Virus record (IMG/VR): IMGVR_UViG_3300028833_000081
Span: 71,731 to 135,730 of that record
DNA: 64,000 bases
Direction: 5' to 3' (one strand)
DNA from: a virus
Taxonomy: Duplodnaviria; Heunggongvirae; Uroviricota; Caudoviricetes
Part shown: one piece after another, positions 419 to 42,431 of the stretch
Position numbering within the stretch: the stretch's first letter is position 1
Layout of the letters: every line of letters begins with the position of its first letter
The notes under the pieces: generated by a model
Database searches by the model: none
Seen by the model: the letters and a program-made list of their open reading frames with translations, nothing else
Told to the model about the DNA's origin: nothing
Program-made: the position numbers and the translations under genes

Positions 419-3400
419 CTATTTACCATTCCAGATTTCTTCAACACGTTCCTTTAGACCAACCAACGCCTTGTTAGTGTATCCGAGGAAGAACACATCC
501 GGCACCTTACGGTTTACAACACCATAGGGGCTAGTACATGCATCAATCGGCTTATCAGGTCTATATTCAGAAATCGGAGTCTCGTTCTGAGGCAGAATAC
601 GGCTAACGATACTCTTCAGTGCCACGTCATACGTGAGCTTGTCACCGCAAGAATAATCGAGCAAGTGTGAGATGTAGAAGTTAATCATAACTCCTTCAAA
701 CGGAACACCCTTAGCCTTACTGTATTTGGCAATCTCGGTATCCTTACGCCTTACGAGCTGATCCTGTCTAACGTCAGCACAGACCTTGTTCACTGTTTCA
801 ACACTCTTGATATAAGCATTGATCAGCTTCTGCAAGCTCTCGCTGTATTCTTCGATGGGCTTATCATAGAACACTTCGATGTCTACAATAGTACCTTCGT
901 ACTTAGAAAGCTTAGAGTTTCTTGCATTAGCTTCAAGAGCTTCAGCCGTATCTTCATCCAGCTTGGAAAGCAACGAAGAGATTTCCTTACTTTCAAGGCT
1001 ACTTTCGAATACTGCCAAAGGTTCGCCTACCTTGATCTTGTCACCAACTTTCTTGATAGAAATCAAGTTAGAATCAGCAGTTAGACCAAGAGAAGTCTGT
1101 TCGATGACTTCGGAAGCCAGCTTTTCGGACAAGTTTTGACCAATTACGGAAGCATCTTCGTATGTCTGGTCTAGGCCACAGATTGCAACCTTAGCCAAGA
1201 CACCCTTAGACATTTCAATACCGTCTGCAGCATCTTCTGTGAAGAAGTGTTTATCAAAAGCCAGAACTTCATTCTCCTTGAACTTGTATCCAGCCTTGAC
1301 ACCCTTCTTCAATTCGTATTCAATATGAACAAAGAATCCAGAAGGAGTTCTACAGTACTTAGGACTCATATCGATAATGCCCTTAGTGCCATCATTGTAT
1401 TCGAGCTTCAGCAGGTATTTAACCTTGGAGTCAAATCCCTTAACTACGCCATCGCACGGAGCCTTAAAACAGTAGTCCTGAGACACAATGTTAGGAATAG
1501 CCTTGTACACGCCATTAGAGACAAGAGCCTTCGTCATGCCGACAGACGGAATCATATGACCAGTCTGAAGCACGCACATCATAGATCTTGCCGGGTCTGC
1601 ATGGTTCGGAGTAAAGGAAGCCGTAAGCTCGCCAGTACTATAGCACGATGTAGCGGAGATCTTGTTAGGATCTACCTGCTTCAAATATCCTCTCTTAGAT
1701 ACGACAGAGGAGTTCATGGACAATTTCTTGTTCATGCCAGCATTTCCATCGTAGGAAGAAGAGTAGCCATAGATACCAATCATACTCTTATCGAAGAAAC
1801 GGTGTTCTTCAGTACCCTGAGCATGTTGATAGTCAGGAGCACCGGGGCCTTTGAAGATGGCTTTAGCCATGTTTTCGCAGTCCTTGACCGGGTTAATCAA
1901 AGTGGAATCTTCGAAATTAGCAGTATCATTGATTTCTTCCATCAATGCATTACGCTTGATCTTGAAAGCTCCACCAGTACCAGTACCAGTTCTTCTATAA
2001 GATTCGATTTCTCTAGCCACGATCTTGTAAAGCATGGCGTTGATACATTCGGTATTACGGACACGATAGATTTCAGTATCAAAGCGTCTGTGGAACATGG
2101 AGTCGATCAACAGATCGTTACAATACAGGAAGCTACCAACGAGATCATTAGGAATGCCCTTATCTCTCAAGATATCCTTGGTAATAGGATCAATGAAGAG
2201 CACATAGAAGTTATCAAGGGCTCTGCCATATCTCGGAGTCAACTTGTCGGCAAAGTAATCAACGAAGCCTTGTCCGCTTGCGCCGTATTCTTCAACATTG
2301 TGCTTAGATGTTTCAAGCTGATGAAGACCGTTATAGAGCAAGTTATGGACAGGGTTAGTGTCCTTGAATACCAAGTAACCATTCTTAAACTTGATAGCTT
2401 CGGGGTATTCTTCAGATGCAGCAGGTCTATCCATACCCTTTTCAATAGGTAAGAACTTATAGTCTACGCCATAAGTATCAAAGATCTTTTCAATGCCTTC
2501 TTTATATCCCAAGAATACAATAAGCGGAATGTAAGCATTAGCCACTTCAAGCTTGGTAAACATCAGGCTAGATCCGGTATACTTACTGTTCTCAAGGATA
2601 TCGCTAATAGTCTTAGAGGATTCCTTGGCAGCAGCACTTATAAGTCCACACACAGATGGAGCAACTTCAGTCGGAGTATCTTTTTCAAGCATCATGACTT
2701 CACCGCTGATAGCAGCAAAGAGCATGTTACCCTTGTAGGTTCCGATATAGTTGTACTTATCTTCAGGGAAGAATTCTGCAATCTTTTCTTTATCCACAGA
2801 AGGTTTCTCAAGAGCTTCAACGCACTTCTTAGGATCAAAGTCAATTATAAGACTACCGATCTTGAGATACACAAGGAATTTGCTAATTTCTTCATATTCA
2901 AGGTTAAGAGCCTTACCGAATTTCTTTCTGTAACCTCTTCCTTGGACAATAAGAGCACCATCAGCAGTAGTCTTTCTTTCCTCATAGAGCTTTGCAATGC
3001 CTTTCTTCAAGGATGCAACCTTGCGGTTCAAGCTCTGTGTAGATCTAGAGATAAAGATCTTGTTATAGGAAGTAGAGTACTGTACAACCGGATCACCAGA
3101 TTGCCATACCTTAACGATAGGCATCAGAGTAATCTGTGTAGTGATCTGCTTTCTGTTACCTTGCAGATAAAGAAATCCGTCTTGGTCAACCTTCGGGATA
3201 TCCACGATAAGAGACTTCGGAGCGCCACCAGCAATGTTGAATTTGACATTGATGGTTTCCTTAGCATTGTAGGCATCAGAAGAGTCTTCCTTAGAGATAG
3301 AACTTACAAAGATCGGGAATTCGGAAGATTCAGAGAAGCTTGTAAAGATTCTGTACTGGTCATAATCATACAGATCCCTTTTATAAGCCTTTCTCAATGC

Positions 3401-5008
3401 CGGAACAATGGCTTTGTTCATTTCTTCATTGACGGCAGTAGTCTTGAACTCTTCGGGTTCCAGATTAGTATCTTCTAGTTCTTTAAGCTTTTCCTTAAGC
3501 GGAATGGTCTTACCATTGATGGTAAGAACAGCCTCTTCTTGTTTCTCTTCAAGCTGAGTAACGGCTTCAGCCTTCCTAATGTTCTGAACTTCCTGCAGTC
3601 TGTTAGCTTTAAGTTCAGTCTTGAGATCATTGACTCTAGTATCGTCATTGATCATTTTCATCAATTCATCAAAGGTCTTGCCCTTAGCTTCAGCACTGAT
3701 TTCATCAACACGATCCTTGATGGTATAAACGAGTTCCTTCTGTTCACTGGTCAAAGGAACGCTATTATTCATACCGGGAACACTCTTGATAATCTCTTCT
3801 TTCTTTTCAGCCAGAATGGGATTCTCTTCGGATCTGTCAATGAAAATCTTTACACCATTGACAGTATCACCGCTCTTCTTGATACCGATAATCTTGAACT
3901 GTTCAAGCTGAACAGAACCTTTGGATTTGTAGAAATTCTTGTTTTTCTCAAGAGTCTTAAAGGAATCATCTGTAGCTTTCAATCTATACAAGGCAATGGT
4001 CTTATTCATCATAGCCTTGATAGCATCGGCAGACTGGTCGTCGCCAGTGAAGATAATAGAATCTTCTACAGGATTACAAGCGGCATTGGGGTAAGTAGAA
4101 TTGATATAACTAGTAATAGCATCGACAGTAGAAGTATAAAGCTTAGTTCTAGAAGGAAATGTTTGGCTCTTTCCAGAGACAGCTCTTTCAACCATGAACA
4201 GATCAGTGGTAGTCTTTGTCTTTTCGACAGGAGCTTCTCCTTCAAGTTCTTCATTGAGATCCTCCTCCGTAATCTTCTGGTCGGTAGTTCCCTTGTAGCA
4301 CAGATTGACCATCCATCTGAATCTAGCAAAGGTCAGCTTATTAATATCCGGAGGGATGACAAACGTAAATCCAGACTTGGGTTCGTACAAGATGCACTTC
4401 CTGCCATAGAAAGGCCAGAAAGTCGGATCATCTTTAATAAAGGCATTCTTTGCAGCAAGATAGAACAAGGATCCAATGCAAAGACCTCTGATTCTCTGGG
4501 ATTCATTATCGCTGAAGTCTTTTCCGAAGATACTACCATCAATGACAACGTACTTGTCTTTATAAATATCTTCCTTACCACGCTTCATAATTACACTTTG
4601 CACTGCTGCAAAGTTTCTAATGAAGGCCATCTTATTCTTAGCGCCTGGGATTTCGAACAATCTGTTCAATTCCTGATACGTAGAGAAATAGGTATTCTTC
4701 AATCTGAGCTGGCCTTGGTTAAGCGGTGTCAGAGAGATACCAGTCTTTTCCTTGACCTGTTCATAGACAGCAAGTCTTTCTGTCTGAATGGTTCTCTTGA
4801 AGACAGACTTATCAAAGAATTTATCCAAATAGAAACAGCGAATATGCTGAGGATCGAACAGTCTGCTGTTCATGATTTGAATCATGTTTTCCAAACTTTC
4901 GGAAAAAATAAGAACGCTATTTTCATACTGCTTACGTTTAGTCGTAAAGACTATCGTAAGATTCTTAAATAGCTTGTACGGCTTTAGGAATTCAAATTTA
5001 GCTCTCAT
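419..5008 (-). CDS. giant virion-associated protein (about 1529 aa), function unknown
   Basis: 4.7-kb uninterrupted ORF. Start moved to Met58 (MRAKFEF) because AGGA lies 8 nt upstream; the first 57 aa of the track ORF look like run-on. Position beside the fibre-like gene suggests a structural role. No polymerase motifs found. Confidence 0.6.
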   Translation of the reverse strand: MRAKFEFLKPYKLFKNLTIVFTTKRKQYENSVLIFSESLENMIQIMNSRLFDPQHIRCFYLDKFFDKSVFKRTIQTERLAVYEQVKEKTGISLTPLNQGQLRLKNTYFSTYQELNRLFEIPGAKNKMAFIRNFAAVQSVIMKRGKEDIYKDKYVVIDGSIFGKDFSDNESQRIRGLCIGSLFYLAAKNAFIKDDPTFWPFYGRKCILYEPKSGFTFVIPPDINKLTFARFRWMVNLCYKGTTDQKITEEDLNEELEGEAPVEKTKTTTDLFMVERAVSGKSQTFPSRTKLYTSTVDAITSYINSTYPNAACNPVEDSIIFTGDDQSADAIKAMMNKTIALYRLKATDDSFKTLEKNKNFYKSKGSVQLEQFKIIGIKKSGDTVNGVKIFIDRSEENPILAEKKEEIIKSVPGMNNSVPLTSEQKELVYTIKDRVDEISAEAKGKTFDELMKMINDDTRVNDLKTELKANRLQEVQNIRKAEAVTQLEEKQEEAVLTINGKTIPLKEKLKELEDTNLEPEEFKTTAVNEEMNKAIVPALRKAYKRDLYDYDQYRIFTSFSESSEFPIFVSSISKEDSSDAYNAKETINVKFNIAGGAPKSLIVDIPKVDQDGFLYLQGNRKQITTQITLMPIVKVWQSGDPVVQYSTSYNKIFISRSTQSLNRKVASLKKGIAKLYEERKTTADGALIVQGRGYRKKFGKALNLEYEEISKFLVYLKIGSLIIDFDPKKCVEALEKPSVDKEKIAEFFPEDKYNYIGTYKGNMLFAAISGEVMMLEKDTPTEVAPSVCGLISAAAKESSKTISDILENSKYTGSSLMFTKLEVANAYIPLIVFLGYKEGIEKIFDTYGVDYKFLPIEKGMDRPAASEEYPEAIKFKNGYLVFKDTNPVHNLLYNGLHQLETSKHNVEEYGASGQGFVDYFADKLTPRYGRALDNFYVLFIDPITKDILRDKGIPNDLVGSFLYCNDLLIDSMFHRRFDTEIYRVRNTECINAMLYKIVAREIESYRRTGTGTGGAFKIKRNALMEEINDTANFEDSTLINPVKDCENMAKAIFKGPGAPDYQHAQGTEEHRFFDKSMIGIYGYSSSYDGNAGMNKKLSMNSSVVSKRGYLKQVDPNKISATSCYSTGELTASFTPNHADPARSMMCVLQTGHMIPSVGMTKALVSNGVYKAIPNIVSQDYCFKAPCDGVVKGFDSKVKYLLKLEYNDGTKGIIDMSPKYCRTPSGFFVHIEYELKKGVKAGYKFKENEVLAFDKHFFTEDAADGIEMSKGVLAKVAICGLDQTYEDASVIGQNLSEKLASEVIEQTSLGLTADSNLISIKKVGDKIKVGEPLAVFESSLESKEISSLLSKLDEDTAEALEANARNSKLSKYEGTIVDIEVFYDKPIEEYSESLQKLINAYIKSVETVNKVCADVRQDQLVRRKDTEIAKYSKAKGVPFEGVMINFYISHLLDYSCGDKLTYDVALKSIVSRILPQNETPISEYRPDKPIDACTSPYGVVNRKVPDVFFLGYTNKALVGLKERVEEIWNGK

Positions 5009-5096
5009 GAGGAATCCTTGTTTAGTTCTAATATGGAGTTCCATACAAAAAAGAAAGCCCGTCCTTGGATAAATCCTTAGATGAGCCGGGAAAACC

Positions 5097-5402
5097 CTAG
5101 TGAATGTTCTTCTTGCACTCGTTCCAGATGTTTGCAGCGATCTTGCTGTGCTTGGAAGCATCTTCGGCATGAACCGCAAGACGGAACACAGTCCAACCGA
5201 CCTTCACTTCGTCACGAGCGCTGATGGAGCTCTCGAAATCGGAGATGTCATCAATGAGACGACGAATGTCGGTTGCCTTGCTGCTTTCCGGATCGGGATC
5301 AACTTCAGACCAGCCGAGGAGCTTGAGCTCCTTCCCGAGTTCGACCTTGCTAGCCTTCAAGTCTTCCAAAAGGGTAGTTACCTGTTCTTTGTCCATCTTC
5401 AT
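5097..5402 (-). CDS. small acidic coiled-coil protein with GC3-rich codon usage (possible moron)
   Basis: 101-aa ORF. RBS aaagga sits 8 nt upstream of the ATG. Codons are G/C-ending, unlike neighbouring genes. Lies between the two giant genes, same strand. Confidence 0.45.
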   Translation of the reverse strand: MKMDKEQVTTLLEDLKASKVELGKELKLLGWSEVDPDPESSKATDIRRLIDDISDFESSISARDEVKVGWTVFRLAVHAEDASKHSKIAANIWNECKKNIH

Positions 5403-5474
5403 GGTTTTGTCCTTTGTGACTCGTCATTAGGATCAAGAGCAATCACTCGATATACTCAGGAATGACATTTGAAT

Positions 5475-5501
5475 CACCCTAATTATTAAATAATTAGGGT
5501 G
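5475..5501 (-). terminator. hairpin after the fibre-like gene
   Basis: 12-bp inverted repeat caccctaattat/ataattagggtg with a 3-nt loop. Confidence 0.45.
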
Positions 5502-5514
5502 TTCAAATTTACGG

Positions 5515-8500
5515 TTAAGATTGGAGACCGTCGAAACCGCCGCCGCAGATAACAAGTCTATCGAAGTTCTTATTATTAAACTGGAAGAATGTTGATCCGG
5601 TCTGGAATAATGCGCGAGTGTTCTTAGTCATCAGAGTCATATTGCTCAGGGCATTGAGTAAATAGTTATCTGATGCTGAATAGGTCATGATACCTAGACC
5701 GTTAGTCCAAGATTCAACCTCATAGCGAAGAGCCGTGTTATTGGGTGTTGAAATTATCTTTGTTGGTATCAGCAGAATATCTCTGTATTTTGCTTCAATC
5801 CCATATCCAATAACACGTATCCTATAATACGACGGAGATTTGGAAAAGATCATTTGCGCTATGGCGAGCGGGGATAGATCTCCGATGTCACTTGAAGCAT
5901 AGTAATTTCCACTGCTGACTTTGTATTTGTAATAAGAAAATACACTGCCAGCACTGTCGTTACTGGTTGAGTTAAACAGCCGTTTGACACGCATATTTTC
6001 GATATGGCTGTTAAGTAAACTCTCGGTTTCTATATTTAACATCGGCGCTAAGAAAGAATACTTGGGTACTCCGTTTATCGATATCGTAACCGGAACATAT
6101 CTTCCGAGATTCATTTCAGAGGCACTTTCGGAATGTTCGCCAGTGATTTGCGGATAATTTGACGAATTACCGCCACCAACAGTATACTCAATCTCGTCTA
6201 TTGGTGCCGAGAGAGCCTTTATTTCGCCATTATCAATATATACACCGTTACCAGCATCACCAATGTTTGCCGTGCATGCAAGAACCTGTCCGGACTGAAC
6301 GTATACAAACTTGTTGTTAGCGCCCTTACTTCCAGTGATACCAGAATTTGTTGCAGCTATAATACTAGCCCAAGAAGCTCTGCTCACTTCCTCGAATTTG
6401 TCAGCATTATTTTTGAAGGAAAATCCCTGTCCAGTACAATCTGTAGCTCTACGGTCACTATTGGCGGTGCCTTTGTTGTAGACAGCCAATGCTCCCGGAG
6501 TTAGTTTAGTACGGGCTGAACCGACGCCGCTACCTCCTGTCAGCCATATACCGTCACCGCCTTGTATAGCAACTTCGCATTCTGCTGTACCATTCTTTAG
6601 TCTATTATTAGCCCAACACGATAGTCCTTCTTCGCCAATGATAGTATGACCATCATAGTACAGTTCGGGATCGCCGTATCCTGAATAAAGCTCGTAATTC
6701 CTTGTTCCAACGAAGACACCATTTTTTTGGCCAGCACGCATCTCTCTAGTGCTTCCCTCGAATGTTCCAGTTTCAATACCAGGAATCTTAATAAAATTAC
6801 GATCCACATCCTTAGCGTCTATCACAATCTTGTAATAGTTTCTGTACGGGCCGCTTGTAATGGCCCAGAACATGCCCTTGCCTGGTGTAAGCTCACTAGC
6901 AGCAAAGGTGAAATCAGATGCAGTCCGGTTAGAGAATTCTGTCAGGATACGCTGGTTAAATATATACGAGCCTGTTGGAGACCAAGATGTAGTAGACGGG
7001 CCAAATGCGTCGCCAATCCCAATATGGTCAGCAAAGATTTCAGTATAATCGTTCTTAAGATTAGTCGAACTCTGTTTTTCATATCTTCTAAGGATAATAG
7101 ATGCTTGTGCCTCAAACGGATCACCATCCCTATAGGAATGTGCATCTATATCTATAGAAGAGTAAGCATAACCAGAGTTATAATTGGAAGCAATACTAAT
7201 AGATCCTCTATTTCTGTTATCGCTATCCGAAGATGTAGATTTTATTGTAATAGAACCATTAGTGTTCTTATACTCAGAACGAGCTCCTTTAGAATCGACA
7301 TTGTTATAGAGAGAATTGTAGAAGTCATATGCTATACCATGCATAGCTCCAGAGCTATTAACAGATCCTTCTATAACCTGTACCATAGTGTCATTGTAGC
7401 CAATTCTATAGACAGTATCGATATTAGAAGACGTAAGTTTAATAGTATTGCCGTAATCATAGATAGATGAGAAATTTCTATCAAGAGTAAATTCGAACGT
7501 ACCATAATCACTACTAGTGCTCATAGTAGCACGTAGCACTTTTTCTACATTGGATTCTTGATAGGTAGACTTAAGAATCAAAGCGCTCTTAGTATCTCTG
7601 TAGTATTCGCCGACATCCTCTCCTGCCATGAGCTTAGCAATATCAGCACCATTCTTAGACGAAAGAGTCTCGTTAACACTGTTCGCCTGAACAGTTGTTT
7701 GTGCATAATCGTTAGAACTGAATTCAAGAAGATCGCTAACTTGCACCTTAGAAGCGGTACGAACAGTTTGAGCAATACTTCCGTCATCATCAACACTTTG
7801 CGTGATTGTATTATTATTAGCGTCGCTCTTAGCTTCGAACGATGTCTGGTAATTACCACTACCAGATACAACATCACTCTTGGCAAAGATTCTGCTATAG
7901 CTACTGGAGGCATCAAGCTGAATGGAATGGTCATCGCTATCAGTGTTACTTTCAGCTACACGCAGAGTAGCACTACCGCCACTAGCACTCTGGAAATCTA
8001 CGCTAACATTATTGCCGTTAGACTGGATATACGAATGGTTATTCGTAGCCTTATCCATCTTAAAGCTATAGTCACCATTTTTAGCTACAGACATGTTAGC
8101 GGAAGATGTTCCGTTAACATTGCTAATAGTATTCGTTCTTACGCCATTGTCTATTGTGCTCTTCGCTTCAATAGAGCTGGAAGAATCATAACAGAGCGTT
8201 TCGTATACCTTCTCGTTAGAAGAATCAGTCTTATCGACAACACGATCGATATAAGAGCCGTTGGATTCCAACTTCTCTTCAGCTTTCTTGTTAGAAAGCT
8301 TCATTGTCTCTTTTTCATTTCCTCTATCGTAGGAAACTTCGATAGTGTCATTAGCACTAGCTCCTGCAATGATCTTTTTATCAGTGATACGATATGCAGA
8401 ATCATCTTTATAGAGCTTTTCTTCTGTCTTTAGCTTGTCACCATTGTTATAGGTTCCGTAAGTCTTTACTTCGGATGCCTTGTCAACATCAACAGTATCA

Positions 8501-17857: not shown

Positions 17858-20446
17858 TTGAAATTTTCAAAAGGGCTATTTATGAATGATACAAATTTAG
17901 ATGCCTCGCTGAAGAAGGCGAATGACAAGATTGAACGCAACTTGTATGGGTTCAATCTGTCCGATTTTTCGGCGAACCTTGATTCCATTAATGAGCTCGC
18001 ACAGAAATCTTTGAAGACTATCAATAGCCTCAAGGTTACTGGAGACCAGCCCGATCTCATCGAGTTTATTGATCGTGAATTCTACAATAGCAAGGCTAAT
18101 AGACGAGGAAAGGGTTTTGGTCTTAACAATATCCAGAATGGTACTGTTAGAGCCAAAAACTATGACAATACCTTGTTGACCGACCTTGAGTCTGGTAAGA
18201 TTGACCTTGCCGGAGAAGACGCTAATTCTGTTAGCAGACAAGCCAGATATAGATCTATCGATAGCGTATGCTCCTTGATTCCTCAGCTCATGAGAATCTT
18301 GCACATCTATCGTGATTCTATCATGTCTCCTAATGCTTTCTCTGAACTCTCCGAGACTGATGGTTTGACCTTTGATGTTAAGCAGACTGGTGAAAAGGAA
18401 ACGGATAACTTCCAAGTTCTTGACACATTACTGTCTCTCAATAAGGAATACAAGGTCTCCGATGATGTTGCACCGAAAGCTTGTTCTGACCTATTGAAGT
18501 ATGGTGATGGCTATGTCTGTGTTCTGGACTACGAAAAAGAAATAGACCGTCTCCTTCATATGACTGATGATGCACCAGGAACTTTTGCTCATGAAGCATT
18601 CAAAGATAGGTCTGACCAAGGTCTTATTGCTGCTAGCGAAGCTACCTCACTTAACAATATCGTCAAGTCTTTGATTGATGAAGAGTATGATGTCTTTAAA
18701 TCTTTGAATCCGACTTCTAAAGAAAAGAAGCCTGAATTTAAGGATCTGACTCCTGAAGAATGGGCAAGTGAAATCGACAAGTACCTCAATGTTGAGTACA
18801 CTACTAGCCTGATGAGCCTGTTCCCTGAGGAAAAAGAAATCATTGACTATCTTATTGATAACGGCTCCATCAAGAATAGCAAGGATATCATGCTTGCTGC
18901 TAGAGAAGCCTTCAGTAATGAAGAAAACTCCGGTCTTGTGATTGACGGTTCTATCGTTAAGGTTCTCGATCCTAAGAAGGTGGTCATTGTTGAAGTGGCT
19001 GGAAAAGAACTCGGCTTCTATTTTTTGTCTGCTGAATTTGATGATGCTCGTATTGATGCCCTTGATTATAATCCTCAGGGATGTCCAGCTTGCGATCTGA
19101 CGTATACCAGTGACCGTATGTATTCCTTTATCACTCACATGGGTAATAGCCCGGTGAACAAGGAAACGAGAGCTAGCATTATTGCAGATCTTTGTCTTAA
19201 GAGACTATCCAAGAAGATTGACAAGAAGTTTATCGCAAAGAACAAGGAATTCAAGGACTTTATCTTCTCTATCCTTAGAGCTAGAAAGAGACTTAACAAG
19301 GTCACTGTGACCTTCATTCCTGCATCCAACATGGTTCACTTCAAGAGAGGTAATGGAACCTACGGTGAATCTGTTCTTGATAGCGTATTGTACTTTGCCA
19401 AACTCTATGTTCTTTCCATGCTCTCCGCTCTTATGCAGCAGATTATCATGGGTAAGGATAAGCAGATATTCTATGTTGATACAGGCCTTGATGAAGACTC
19501 CGAAGGAGCTATTCAGAAATTCATCATGGACTTCCGTTCTAAGGAAGTGACTGTAGACGACTTCTCCGATGTTACCAACATCATGAACCGTGTTACGAAG
19601 AGTAACTCCATGTTCATCCCTATGGTAGACGGAAAGAAGGCTGTAGAATTCGATAACTATGCTGGTCAGCAAGCTGAATTCAATAATGACTTCTTGCAGG
19701 ACTTATTGAAGTCTATCATTAGTGGTACTGGTATTCCTACTGCTTGGCTTGATAGCGGTATGAGTGACGTTGAGTTTGCCACTCAGCTTGTTCAACAGAA
19801 CGGTAACGTCCTTAGAACTGTGACCATGTATCAGCGTATTATGAACAATGGTATTACCAGATTGTTCCAGTTGCTGTATAAACATCAGAAGATCACTAAG
19901 GATCAGAATGTACCAGATTTCTTTATTCACTATCCTGAACCTGTAACCCTCGATAGTAAGGTTGCTGAAGAGTCTATATCCAAGGCTCAGTCTATCGCTG
20001 ATTTCATTATCAATACTCTCATTGGCGAAAATCCGAATGAAAGAGATACTCTTGCCAAGGAAGTTCTTAAGAGAGAACTCACCAAGAAGTACTCTGCAGG
20101 TATTGACTGGGAAGAAGCCGAAGAACTGCTTAAGGAAGCCAGAGAAGAGACTCAGGAAACTGCTCTCCGTGATGAAGCTCTCGATAAGAAGGCTGATGAA
20201 ACTCATGAAGAGGAAGCTGAAAAGCATCCTGAAGAAGCTAAGAAGCAGGAAGAAGAAAAGCTGGAAGAACAGGGTGGAAATCCTGAGAATCCGGAGGGAG
20301 AAAATCCCGAAGAAGAAGGCAACGAGCCTGAAGAGGGTGGCGAACCTGAAGAAGAGGGAAAGAATCCTAAGAAAAAAGAAAATGAAGAAGAGGAAGAAGA
20401 GTCTGAGGGTGGAAGTTCCCCTGAAGATGATTTCTTCAACTCCTAA
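17858..20446 (+). CDS. putative portal protein
   Basis: 862-aa ORF. Contains a GTGIPTAWLD segment like the portal GIP..LL stem motif. Extremely acidic Glu-rich C-terminal tail as in many portals. Terminator follows. Assignment by architecture only. Confidence 0.5.
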   Translation: MKFSKGLFMNDTNLDASLKKANDKIERNLYGFNLSDFSANLDSINELAQKSLKTINSLKVTGDQPDLIEFIDREFYNSKANRRGKGFGLNNIQNGTVRAKNYDNTLLTDLESGKIDLAGEDANSVSRQARYRSIDSVCSLIPQLMRILHIYRDSIMSPNAFSELSETDGLTFDVKQTGEKETDNFQVLDTLLSLNKEYKVSDDVAPKACSDLLKYGDGYVCVLDYEKEIDRLLHMTDDAPGTFAHEAFKDRSDQGLIAASEATSLNNIVKSLIDEEYDVFKSLNPTSKEKKPEFKDLTPEEWASEIDKYLNVEYTTSLMSLFPEEKEIIDYLIDNGSIKNSKDIMLAAREAFSNEENSGLVIDGSIVKVLDPKKVVIVEVAGKELGFYFLSAEFDDARIDALDYNPQGCPACDLTYTSDRMYSFITHMGNSPVNKETRASIIADLCLKRLSKKIDKKFIAKNKEFKDFIFSILRARKRLNKVTVTFIPASNMVHFKRGNGTYGESVLDSVLYFAKLYVLSMLSALMQQIIMGKDKQIFYVDTGLDEDSEGAIQKFIMDFRSKEVTVDDFSDVTNIMNRVTKSNSMFIPMVDGKKAVEFDNYAGQQAEFNNDFLQDLLKSIISGTGIPTAWLDSGMSDVEFATQLVQQNGNVLRTVTMYQRIMNNGITRLFQLLYKHQKITKDQNVPDFFIHYPEPVTLDSKVAEESISKAQSIADFIINTLIGENPNERDTLAKEVLKRELTKKYSAGIDWEEAEELLKEAREETQETALRDEALDKKADETHEEEAEKHPEEAKKQEEEKLEEQGGNPENPEGENPEEEGNEPEEGGEPEEEGKNPKKKENEEEEEESEGGSSPEDDFFNS

Positions 20447-20451
20447 AACCA

Positions 20452-20485
20452 AATATGGAAAGCTTCGGCTTTCCATATTTTTTCT
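20452..20485 (+). terminator. rho-independent terminator after the portal gene
   Basis: Hairpin aaatatggaaagc ttcg gctttccatattt, then TTTTT. Confidence 0.65.
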
Positions 20486-21048
20486 ATGATCCGAAAAAAG
20501 GAACGAGGAGGTAGCTAATCTCCTCGTTCCAACAACCTCGCGGTTGTAACCGTCTCACAGACTGTTTTTGGTGGGTGTCACTCGCTGTCTTCGCTTCACA
20601 AGCAACTTAATGCTCGTGCTATCGGATCCTCCAGCCGTAGCTTGTCGGGGTATCACTGTATCCGAAGATCTAGCTCGATCTCTGACGTCAGAGCTGATTG
20701 ACCACTTTTTAGAGGCGACCCATATCCCAGAGTCACGTCTACCTCACCGTGAGACAACTGATGTACTCTTCTTTCAGGAGACGTTATACCTTACTTTGAA
20801 GAGAGATTCGGGTCATGGCGTGTCAATGCTCACCGAATCCTGTTGAGAGCTAACCACCACAGATAGCTTTTTCTGTGAAGGCTTCTTGCTTCATTTTACG
20901 GCGACAATCCCAACAGCGAAAGTCGCACAACCTAATGGCGTACTCTTGGTATCCATCAGGCAACCTAGGCAGATATTGATCACTATATCGCTAGATCTAG
21001 ACATTGATTTATATACTATTGTCTTTTTAGTTATTACGAAACTCAATA
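20485..21048. other. GC-rich non-coding island rich in hairpins and palindromes (candidate structured RNA, origin or packaging site)
   Basis: About 560 nt with visibly higher GC than its flanks. Track ORFs here lack RBS and have odd composition. Hairpins ggaacgaggagg...cctcctcgttcc and ctcaccgtgag. Perfect palindrome tctgacgtcaga. Repeated agatctag boxes. Confidence 0.4.
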
Positions 21049-21066
21049 ATGAACATGAGAGGATTT

Positions 21067-21522
21067 ATGAAAGCTACGGATATTATGGTCTTAGAAGACA
21101 GACTAAGTTCGTTAGTTTCTATGCTCCCGGCTGATGAAGTTGCTAGCGCTAATGGTGTAATCGATAGGCTACTGTACATGGATTATGGAAAGATGGCTAA
21201 GCACTTCAAAAGTAGAATGGAAGTAGCTAACGATAAGAAAGCCTTGAATAATCTTAAGGAAGACATTCAAGACATTATTAGCAATATGAAAGATATTGTT
21301 GATGGTAAGAGTAACAAGTCTACCGCTATCAGAAATGTCATTACGGCATTAGTAAGCGCAGGGCTGTTTGCCATACCGTTTGTTGGAATTGCCTCCATGA
21401 CAGCATTCCTGGTAAAGCGTTCTAAGGATATGGATGCAATCAAAAAGAAATTGTCTGCTCAGATTCCAACATTACAGCAGATTCTTACGAGTGTTAAACA
21501 TAAACTTGAGGTGATCAAATGA
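21067..21522 (+). CDS. hypothetical protein with C-terminal transmembrane segment
   Basis: Start moved to MKATDIM, with gagagga 5 nt upstream. C-terminal hydrophobic stretch AGLFAIPFVGIASMTAFLV. Confidence 0.5.
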   Translation: MKATDIMVLEDRLSSLVSMLPADEVASANGVIDRLLYMDYGKMAKHFKSRMEVANDKKALNNLKEDIQDIISNMKDIVDGKSNKSTAIRNVITALVSAGLFAIPFVGIASMTAFLVKRSKDMDAIKKKLSAQIPTLQQILTSVKHKLEVIK

Positions 21523-34973: not shown

Positions 34974-35373
34974 GAATAAAACATTGGACTTATACAAAGC
35001 CTATCATTTGTTAACAGCGTTATACTTGGTTAGTCCGGGGAATGTTATAGAGCCTCCAATGCTATTCTTTGCACCAGATCCATTTGGGAATCCTTGGCAT
35101 GGCATAGCGAGAATAGACTCTGAGCTTGGCTTTGACTATATGCTCTCAACATTTACGTCTATAAGCGAGAATGGCGCTTTTAGTATAGACAGGAGTATTG
35201 CCGATTATGACAAGACATTCCTTGAGGAAACCGATGTTCATCAGATTATGATAAACATTATAGGCATGTATGAGAAATCCATTGAGCTAATCTTGGCTGA
35301 TAAGTATCTGCCCAATTTAGTTAACAAGGAAGCCTTTACTGTGCCTATTTACAGATCTACACGAACATTTTAA
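34939..35373 (+). CDS. hypothetical protein (144 aa), start uncertain
   Basis: Overlaps the previous gene by 35 nt. An internal Met is possible. Confidence 0.4.
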   Translation: MRNREQTEAETKNKTLDLYKAYHLLTALYLVSPGNVIEPPMLFFAPDPFGNPWHGIARIDSELGFDYMLSTFTSISENGAFSIDRSIADYDKTFLEETDVHQIMINIIGMYEKSIELILADKYLPNLVNKEAFTVPIYRSTRTF

Positions 35374-35382
35374 GGACAAACT

Positions 35383-35721
35383 ATGGAAATCGCAGAACTA
35401 TCAAAAATACTGATCTCAACAGGTCATGACGATATTGCAGCTGGGCCAGTGTCTGAGAGAGACTTTTGGGTTCTATCACCGACATTTAAGTATGGTAGTA
35501 CCATATACGGCAGTATTGTTATAGACTACGAAGGATCCAAAATTAGTACTTACACAAAAATTGTCGATAACAGAGTCACCGCTGGGCGTGGTGATATATT
35601 TGAAGATGTTAAAAGTATAACAGCAGACATAATTTTAAAGCAAGTAATAGGCTTCGCTGAGAAGGCTTTAAGTCTTGTTCTCAGCGGTGAATATATACCT
35701 GCAAGGAGAGAAGATGCCTGA
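35383..35721 (+). CDS. hypothetical protein (112 aa)
   Basis: RBS aaggacaaactatg. Confidence 0.5.
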   Translation: MEIAELSKILISTGHDDIAAGPVSERDFWVLSPTFKYGSTIYGSIVIDYEGSKISTYTKIVDNRVTAGRGDIFEDVKSITADIILKQVIGFAEKALSLVLSGEYIPARREDA

Positions 35722-42354: not shown

Positions 42355-42431
42355 TGGTAGCAAAGGCTGGGATCGAACCAGCGACCCTCGGACTAGTTGT
42401 CCGATGCTCTAACCAACTGAGCTACTTAGCT
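42355..42431 (-). tRNA. tRNA (77 nt) with atypical anticodon loop CAACUAG; identity undetermined
   Basis: Cloverleaf read by hand. Acceptor AGCUAAG/CUUUGCU has one U-U mismatch. U8 present. D-arm GCUC-AGUUGGUUA-GAGC with G18/G19. Anticodon stem UCGGA/UCCGA. 5-nt variable loop. T-arm GCUGG-UUCGAUC-CCAGC. Discriminator A, then CCA. Position 33 is A rather than the near-universal U, so canonical 34-36 reads ACU. Confidence 0.7.

Follow-up and report, generated by a model that had tools for sequence, protein, structure and literature searches.

An island of approximately 600 nt between a portal-like gene and the next gene downstream, in a 64,000-nt stretch of Caudoviricetes DNA (positions 71,731 to 135,730 of the IMG/VR record IMGVR_UViG_3300028833_000081; hereafter the window, whose numbering is used throughout), is non-coding and has a conserved secondary structure. 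In our judgment it is probably a stand-alone gene on the minus strand, antisense to its neighbors, whose product would be a highly folded non-coding RNA (ncRNA) of ∼510 nt. An initial annotation, made from the letters alone, had already described a gene-free stretch of this size after the terminator of the portal-like gene (20451–20480), which is indeed present, and had left three options for it, i.e. an ncRNA, a replication origin, or a packaging (pac/cos) region. The first is supported by hairpins kept through compensatory changes and by the lack of a common open reading frame (ORF), whereas no support was found for the other two. By homology with P0001 (151 aa), the downstream gene starts at the ATG at 21067, just 3' of a GAGAGGA motif, and the non-coding stretch therefore spans 20447–21066.

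Conservation of structure in a non-coding island

Four copies of the island were found, which fall into two lineages. One comprises the full-length window copy, used as reference, and a partial copy in the relative L007 with 15 differences from it over 402 nt. The other comprises a full-length copy in L002 (identical to L133 and L130), whose portal protein is 91% identical to that of the window, and a partial copy in L008 with 42 differences from L002. Whereas the flanks are ∼90% identical, the islands of the two lineages are ∼50–55% identical and align at just 294 of 620 columns, with identity limited to a few blocks. When the two full-length copies were folded independently, hairpins appeared at matching positions and in the same order, built from different stem sequences. 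The fold energy of single sequences is ∼3 standard deviations below that of shuffled sequences on both strands (z of −3.06 and −3.13 for the window, −3.08 and −3.55 for L002), and the decisive evidence for structure is not this energy but the comparison between copies.

For this comparison, a curated model with 14 helices and 80 aligned pairs was drawn by hand and checked by script. The two lineages are identical at 43 of these pairs, 34 pairs have changed on both sides and remain canonical, two have changed on one side, and a single pair is broken. The comparative alignment that had been proposed as a check for covariation has thus been made, and it shows pairs maintained through compensatory substitutions between lineages. 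Further events separate the sub-variants: helix P6 of the window differs from that of L007 by an A-U to G-C change, L008 has a third form of the outer stem of P2 and a P3 cut down to a 3-bp hairpin (CCU-GUAAUA-AGG), and several pairs have moved from G-C or A-U to G-U. Hand curation and covariance-model alignment were used because the variable stems come out of register in MAFFT alignments; a custom procedure in which pairing profiles weighted the alignment brought no improvement over MAFFT.

Models built from one lineage recognize the other. A covariance model with structure (R1), covering 42 bp of the 5' domain (20836–21004) and built from the window and L007 copies only, matches L002 and L008 over its full length with 76.7 and 78.3 bits, respectively. 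A sequence-only model of the same alignment (R2) gives partial matches of 37.8 and 45.3 bits, so that structure adds 33–39 bits over sequence alone. In the R1 alignment, 97% of the pair cells hold standard pairs compared with 39–46% when the partners are slid by 1–3 columns, and 16 of the 42 pairs have changed on both sides compared with 1–4 in the slid controls; the observed measures were reached by none of 500 shuffles. A model of the 3' domain built from the window only (R3) misses L002 with default filters. With the filters off, it detects L002 at 11.7 bits (E about 3e-4 in 1 kb), on the minus strand and in the right place, and its alignment of P10, P12, P14, and the terminator is exactly that of the manual model.

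Six-frame translations of the window and L002 islands have no ORF in common, and none of the island ORFs matches a Pfam family. A protein-coding gene at this place in homologous phages, which the initial annotation had named as the finding that would speak against its proposal, was not seen, as the relatives have either the island or a short non-coding spacer. Scanning the whole window with cmscan and Rfam 15 at gathering thresholds returned a tRNA as the sole match, and a permissive scan (E ≤ 10) of the window and L002 islands returned no ROOL, GOLLD, OLE, HEARO, or raiA RNA. Rfam likewise gave no match to group I or II introns, tmRNA, RNase P RNA, 6S RNA, phi29 pRNA, or self-cleaving ribozymes, and ARAGORN found no tmRNA. 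The particular RNA classes first put forward (GOLLD, ROOL, HEARO, group I/II introns, tmRNA, and RNase P) hence do not match even at E ≤ 10. A few weak Rfam matches (rpsL leader, wcaG, and SdsR) were rejected, since they cover terminators only.

Strand, ends, and anatomy of the proposed RNA

No strand had been assigned previously; it is the minus strand that folds and ends in a terminator, and it runs antisense to the genes on either side. On this strand, G-U pairs outnumber A-C pairs by seven to zero in one lineage and by eight to one in the other, and five single substitutions in L008 yield G-U but one yields C-A. GNRA loops (GCGA and GUAA) are present on the minus strand only and read UCGC and UUAC on the plus strand. 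Likewise, a strong hairpin followed by six or seven U residues is found in both lineages on the minus strand only, with no T-run on the plus strand. The curated structure has energies of −103.1 and −102.3 kcal/mol on the minus strand versus −95.7 and −89.3 kcal/mol on the plus strand, and both the curated structure and the minimum free energy (MFE) fold are better by 7–15 kcal/mol on the minus strand. Finally, the best plus-strand match of R3 scores 3.2 bits compared with 11.7 bits on the minus strand.

The proposed transcript (20494–21002, minus strand, ∼510 nt) takes its 3' end from a terminator at 20494–20530, consisting of the hairpin GGAACGAGGAG-AUUAGCUAC-CUCCUCGUUCC (20530–20500, −19.8 kcal/mol) and U6 (20499–20494). 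L002 has a terminator in the same place with a different stem (AAGACGGG/CCCGUCUU, −15.2 kcal/mol) and U7. Both were missed by a consensus terminator scanner, as their loops of 9 and 12 nt exceed its 8-nt limit. The same hairpin had been reported before as a 12-bp stem-loop; it exists (20500–20530), with 11 perfect pairs (GGAACGAGGAG/CTCCTCGTTCC) plus one G-T. It stands back to back with the convergent intrinsic terminator of the portal-like gene (20451–20480, plus strand), which consists of a 13-bp stem followed by a T-run and is kept in L001, L002, L009, and L010.

The 5' end is placed from a TATATAA box (gTATATAAa, 21009–21015, minus strand), a candidate promoter ∼7–12 nt upstream of P2. The window, L002, and L008 all retain this box, with a G or an A before it, whereas in the 25 nt upstream of it 13 positions differ even between L002 and L008. 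Because it is a poorer match when read on the plus strand (TATATAC or TATATAT), we infer a start near 21002, 5–7 nt before P2, and a transcript of ∼510 nt. TATATAA is a candidate promoter motif of the phage, possibly the early motif of the virion RNA polymerase (RNAP), as judged from its placement: eight of its 18 copies in the window are intergenic, while intergenic DNA makes up 13% of the window (87% is ORF). In RNAP-encoding jumbo phages, early promoters are phage-specific AT-rich motifs of ∼10 nt centered near −10 (PMC7598289). Several start codons of the window have a copy of TATATAA, usually as gTATATAA after an A/T run, 23–45 nt before them; the sites are 33794, 36814, 38494, 54946, 56628, and 26222 (plus strand) and 26200 and 21015 (minus strand).

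Read 5' to 3' on the minus strand, the conserved 5' domain begins with P2 (20962–20997), which consists of an outer helix, an inner helix, and a conserved loop, (A)GUGAUCA, that holds the tetramer GAUC. Its outer stem exists in three versions (AUCUAG/CUAGGU, AUCUCCU/AGGAGGU, and ACCAUA/UGUGGU). It is followed by P3 (20930–20961), a 9+3-bp hairpin in which six pairs show changes on both sides, and by a conserved junction, UUGUGC, between P3 and P4. P4 closes the core (20840–20916) by pairing CUGUUGGG (20916–20909) with CUCAACAG (20847–20840), and shows a U-A to C-G covariation, a U-G in L008, and one conserved G-U. Within the core lie the most conserved segment of the island, modeled as unpaired (20883–20902; GCCGUAAAAUG(A/G)AGC(A/G)AGAA, i.e. 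GCCGUAAAAUGrAGCrAGAA), and P6 (20853–20882), a hairpin of 10 pairs in which a U-U mismatch and two wobble pairs are conserved. Four pairs of P6 have changed on both sides, including the A-U to G-C change already mentioned, and its loop, AAAAGCUA, holds AGCU.

The middle region (20683–20839) is variable, with lineage-specific hairpins or insertions and the candidate helices P7, P8, and P9. It includes CUCUG-ACGU-CAGAG, the perfect palindrome of the initial annotation, which was confirmed and is 14 nt long (CTCTGACGTCAGAG, 20680–20693). L002 has ∼30–45 extra nt in this region, and L008 keeps two hairpins of the L002 lineage by G-C to G-U changes. The 3' part starts with P10 (20665–20682; GAGAUC-GAGCUA-GAUCUU), directly 5' of a conserved CGGAU and previously listed as agatctagctcgatct; its counterpart in L002, GGACA-CUCAAA-UGUCC, is compensatory at three of five pairs. 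Between P10 and P12 lies a conserved loop motif, CGACAArGC.ACGG. P12 (20597–20618) is an 8-bp hairpin with a conserved loop, UUAAGU (UUAACU in L002), which holds UUAA; compared with the window, L002 has both partners changed at four of its pairs and one pair disrupted. Between P12 and P14 there is a conserved ACCCAC. P14 (20532–20547) is a GNRA hairpin, ACAACC-GCGA-GGUUGU, replaced in L002 by AACUCCG-GUAA-CGGGGUU, i.e. another stem that also carries a GNRA loop.

Three sequence-conserved apical loops are predicted to be unpaired (0.88–1.0) in both lineages, and the tetramers that they hold (GAUC, AGCU, and UUAA) are self-complementary. The chance of a self-complementary tetramer in all three loops is ∼0.013, judged post hoc. 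By analogy with other large RNAs, this hints at self-association. The junction between P6 and P4 (20848–20852) is complementary to the terminator loop (20512–20516), with UAGCU/AGCUA in the window and GAGCA/UGUUC in L002, and both end pairs of this pairing have changed on both sides between the lineages. These two segments form a candidate pseudoknot that would tie the 3' end to the core. Other long-range helices were considered (GGUUGUGC with the region before P12, UCGC/GCGA, and GACC/GGUC), none of which can be selected from two lineages.

We propose that transcription starts a few nt downstream of the gTATATAA box (21015–21009) and would end at the hairpin and U6 (20530–20494), back to back with the portal terminator. 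The RNA would fold into the conserved 5' domain, made of P2, P3, and the P4-closed core with its unpaired stretch of ∼20 nt and P6, followed by the variable middle and by a 3' part with P10, P12, the GNRA-capped P14, and the terminator. Because stem sequences change freely while pairing stays, the helices may act as a scaffold; because it is the unpaired stretch of the core and the apical loops whose sequence is under selection, these may be interaction surfaces. The invariant stretch and the GAUC, AGCU, and UUAA loops could thus make RNA–RNA contacts, possibly of the RNA with itself, or contacts with protein. A simple antisense role is unlikely, as an RNA starting at ∼21002 overlaps no gene. 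The best-supported view is that of a structured, trans-acting RNA with an accessory role, belonging to one small subclade among the phiKZ-like jumbo phages that encode an RNAP. A bolder extension, by analogy and in our opinion improbable, is that it founds a new class of ornate self-assembling phage RNAs, in which symmetric intermolecular kissing loops through GAUC, AGCU, and UUAA would, as with OLE, ROOL, and GOLLD, assemble an RNA-only homo-oligomer, here inside infected cells; the conserved GNRA loop and the pseudoknot between terminator loop and junction might then aid oligomerization.

The compositional features that first drew attention to the island fared unevenly. The rise in GC content, described as sharp against a context of 38%, exists but is modest, with 45.6% in the island (48.0% across 20485–20990) compared with a window mean of 40.3% (standard deviation, 2.9%); ∼5% of equally long windows reach the GC content of the island, e.g. 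inside nrdD. The near-palindrome AGATCTAGCTCGATCT was found at 20666–20681. The proposed hairpin ctcaccgtgag (20743–20753) is unable to form, since its spacer is just 1 nt. Both copies of the "agatctag" box AGATCTAG exist, at 20666 and 20993 and not at 20655 and 20986, the second of them in P2; the octamer is not enriched, however, with five copies in the window versus 4.5 expected.

The window lineage has, in addition, a 22-nt direct repeat that is 82% identical (20652–20673 and 20979–21000) and a perfect 9-bp inverted repeat (AGATCTAGC/GCTAGATCT, 20666–20674 and 20990–20998), which would let the 5' strand of P2 pair with P10 in an alternative long-range fold. CUAGAUCUAG, at the 5' end of the RNA, is a 10-nt palindrome. 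Neither these repeats nor this palindrome are conserved in L002.

Alternative explanations for the island

The island could be read on the other strand, as a long structured 5' leader that regulates the 151-aa gene in cis, or as a processed read-through RNA. It does lie directly upstream of that gene with no plus-strand terminator in between, its helices are strand-symmetric to a first approximation, the plus-strand fold also has a z of about −3, and a plus-strand TATATA box is found 45–50 nt upstream of the ATG. We nevertheless consider this quite unlikely, because on the plus strand fifteen G-U pairs would turn into A-C or C-A mismatches, the GNRA loops and the U-run would be lost, and both the folding energies and the R3 scores given above favor the minus strand. 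Moreover, transcripts would have to read through the portal terminator just upstream, and the plus-strand box deviates from the TATATAA consensus at its last base. An element acting as DNA (an origin of replication, a pac/cos site, or several clustered palindromes that bind protein, perhaps with single-stranded DNA hairpins) would account for the perfect palindromes of the window copy (CTCTGACGTCAGAG, CTAGATCTAG, and TAGCTA) and for the location next to the portal gene, and G-T wobbles would also stabilize single-stranded DNA hairpins. Yet the palindrome sequences are not conserved in L002, where hairpin potential alone persists; there are no iterons, just short two-copy repeats, and the cumulative GC skew does not turn at the island. 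An origin would be expected to have an AT-rich unwinding element, whereas the island is richer in GC than average, and an essential origin or packaging site would not be expected to be missing from L001, L009, L010, and L144, which share the gene order but lack the island. Because a promoter-like box and a terminator frame the island as a transcription unit, and GNRA loops and strand-specific wobble pairs are hallmarks of RNA, an action at the DNA level seems highly improbable.

Could the island be a functionless relic, left by the decay of a gene or of a mobile insertion, with hairpins that are incidental or mere remnants? Its patchy distribution in one subclade (an unrelated 130-nt spacer is found elsewhere), its fast divergence relative to the flanks, its poorly conserved middle, and the homing endonuclease activity in this phage group (a GIY-YIG insertion in nrdD of L010) would all fit. 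Neutral decay, however, would not leave 34 of 37 changed pairs canonical, nor would loops and a 20-nt stretch stay invariant under it as stem sequences are replaced; in addition, no frame shows protein similarity, and searches of phage, metagenome, and genome collections found no related source element. A relic is therefore unlikely. Lastly, the conserved AUG at 20889–20887 (minus strand) might start a small protein or peptide, MKQEAFTEK..., given that the AUG and ∼10 further codons are conserved in an A-rich upstream context. This is scarcely credible. Across the four copies, the ORF varies in length (14, 23, 92, and 40 codons), and the conserved nucleotides further downstream change frame owing to a 1-nt indel within the loop of P6, so that conservation acts at the nucleotide level. 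The changes within this stretch are the compensatory changes of the P6 stem, and there is no Pfam match.

Several points weigh against the reading as a stand-alone minus-strand RNA gene. The base is narrow, with four copies, two of them partial, from two diverged lineages; with two lineages only, covariation events are poorly counted and an R-scape-type statistic is out of reach. The curated model carries a selection bias because it was drawn with both sequences in view, and individual helices fail in places: P7 is broken in L008, as are the end pairs of P4 and P10 in L007. The 3' domain is much less conserved than the 5' domain, the R3 score of 11.7 bits being weak, and no single fold was chosen for the middle third of the RNA. 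A sigma-70 scan found no promoter on either strand, and the TATATAA box could serve the downstream plus-strand gene, its TATATA core being nearly palindromic. Finally, the island is dispensable, as close relatives do without it. If the RNA reading is wrong, the island is a fast-evolving spacer without wider interest.

Genomic setting, distribution, and relation to known RNAs

The stand-alone minus-strand RNA gene that we favor would belong to a phiKZ-like, RNAP-encoding jumbo phage. The window encodes a multisubunit RNAP beta-like protein of the jumbo-phage type (1586 aa, 419–5179, minus strand; phrog_14872, E 1e-141) as well as NrdD, and the relative L001 lies on a 242-kb contig. The portal-like gene upstream of the island (17858–20446, plus strand) encodes a protein of 862 aa with an acidic C-terminal tail, which matches PHROG 3004 (virion structural protein, E 6e-40) and a chain of dodecameric phiKZ gp129 (Protein Data Bank entry 9xpe, 9xpe_M; E 1.2e-6); given these two matches, the label "portal" is reasonable. 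The leader and start of the downstream gene (21040–21069, plus strand; AATAATGAAC..GAGAGGA..ATG) bound the RNA and lie outside it. The 151-aa product of that gene (21067–21522, plus strand) contains a hydrophobic stretch, AIRNVITALVSAGLFAIPFVGIASMTAFLV, whose sequence suggests a membrane anchor. It matches no Pfam or PHROG family, only four homologous clusters were found among 5.8 billion proteins, and an exact look-up of the window's own protein returned no record.

A near-identical leader, AATAATGAAC-n-GAGG-n-ATTTATG, precedes two genes of the window (21045–21069, plus strand, and 17320–17293, minus strand) and may be a common translation-initiation or promoter element. The only tRNA gene of the window lies 21 kb from the island (42355–42431, minus strand); ARAGORN assigns it as tRNA-Ser with an unusual anticodon, ACU. 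An apparent gap of 701 nt elsewhere in the window (34974–35674) was rejected as a gene-free region, since it is occupied by ORFs of 144 and 112 aa.

In more distantly related phages, the gene order is the same but an unrelated spacer replaces the island; it measures 130 nt in L001, L009, L010, and L144 and 73 nt in L145. Searches anchored on homologues of the downstream protein gave L007–L010, and those anchored on homologues of the portal C terminus gave L144 and L145; together, these protein-anchored searches yielded just two additional copies, both partial. Neither the island nor its 4.2-kb neighborhood has a match in the GenBank phage collection. Among exact-pattern scans of IMG/VR, CATTTTACGGC..TCCCAAC returned only L002 and a chance match in coding sequence (L005), and GATAGCTT..AGGCTTCT returned at least 118 chance matches, none of them related by nhmmer. 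Scanning Joint Genome Institute (JGI) metagenomes for ACCAC..GATAGCTT..AGGCTTCT returned only the L002 contig and its identical copy L133. For GCTTCTnGCTnCATTTTnCGGC, a scan of GTDB genomes gave 10 chance matches, those inspected lying inside genes, and IMG/VR gave only L002. Running nhmmer across all fetched sequences revealed no further island copy. As far as these sequence searches indicate, the element is rare and lineage-specific, present in a handful of gut or rumen phage contigs.

At the same place, three island-less relatives have a plus-strand hairpin followed by AAATTTT (L001, 6626–6690; L009, 3925–3990; L010, 3928–3995). Its 9–10-bp stem differs between L001 and L010 with pairing kept, and its CA-rich loop of 33–37 nt contains CCAAAC repeats; the hairpin may represent another small RNA or an atypical terminator. 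In L010, nrdD (5217–8431) is split into two ORFs of 482 and 588 aa, the second of which includes a GIY-YIG endonuclease domain, suggesting that a homing endonuclease has inserted into this gene, which lies two genes downstream from the site of the island.

Structured RNAs of at least 500 nt are rare in bacteria and phages, i.e. rRNA, group II introns, GOLLD, ROOL, and OLE. Each new RNA of this class has exposed unexpected biology, and ROOL, GOLLD, and OLE have recently been shown to be RNA-only multimers. ROOL (RF03087), first seen in rumen metagenomes, is phage- or prophage-encoded, heavily structured, and 581 nt long on average, with few strongly conserved nucleotides outside loops and junctions (PMC5737381), and it forms RNA-only multimers through kissing loops and A-minor contacts (PMC12286853). 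The proposed island RNA resembles it as a large, structured, phage-borne RNA. Unlike ROOL, which is found in three phyla, it is found in two lineages, neither of which matches the ROOL covariance model even at E ≤ 10. Furthermore, ROOL and GOLLD typically occur near tRNA genes, whereas the nearest tRNA gene of the window is 21 kb away. Both are phage-borne and ∼580–800 nt long (PMC5737381). GOLLD (RF01998) is likewise a large, ornate RNA associated with phages or prophages, one part of which is better conserved than its other half; its model does not match the island, it often exceeds 800 nt near tRNAs, and its conserved part is at the 3' end rather than in the 5' domain.

At ∼600 nt, OLE (RF01071) is similar in size to the proposed RNA and, like it, folds intricately and contains unpaired stretches that are strongly conserved. 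Symmetric intermolecular kissing loops are marked in OLE and GOLLD by palindromic loop tetramers (GGCC, GAUC, and AGCU), and in the OLE dimer the tetramer of such a loop switches among GGCC, GAUC, and AGCU (PMC12286853). OLE is encoded in the chromosomes of extremophilic Bacillota and has protein partners dedicated to it (PMC9723947). By contrast, the island RNA would be phage-borne, and the OLE model does not match it.

The phi29 pRNA (RF00044) is a structured phage RNA of ∼120–174 nt, which binds the portal, functions in packaging, and multimerizes by loop–loop pairing; its gene is not known to be adjacent to the portal gene. Adjacency to the portal gene is the sole link with the island RNA, there is no match to the pRNA model, and the island-less relatives package their DNA without this RNA. 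The structured-RNA catalogue of IMG/VR (DNAVirus_N) holds comparative predictions from intergenic regions of uncultured phages, many with intrinsic terminators; its motifs are 29–151 nt long and at least three unique IMG/VR regions were required (PMC10690425). Compared by this published description, the survey would have missed the island RNA, as it is ∼510 nt long and present in a single IMG/VR contig; long and rare RNAs escape surveys of this type. The island RNA is outside all described families, although its kind, a large ornate phage ncRNA closest to ROOL and GOLLD, is already known. If our reading is true, it would be the fourth unrelated RNA of this kind, found in an RNAP-encoding jumbo phage of the gut or rumen with its own promoter-like box and terminator, and a compact test case with palindromic loops and natural "knock-out" sister phages that are without it. 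Such RNAs would then extend beyond the tRNA-linked cassettes of Firmicutes phages.

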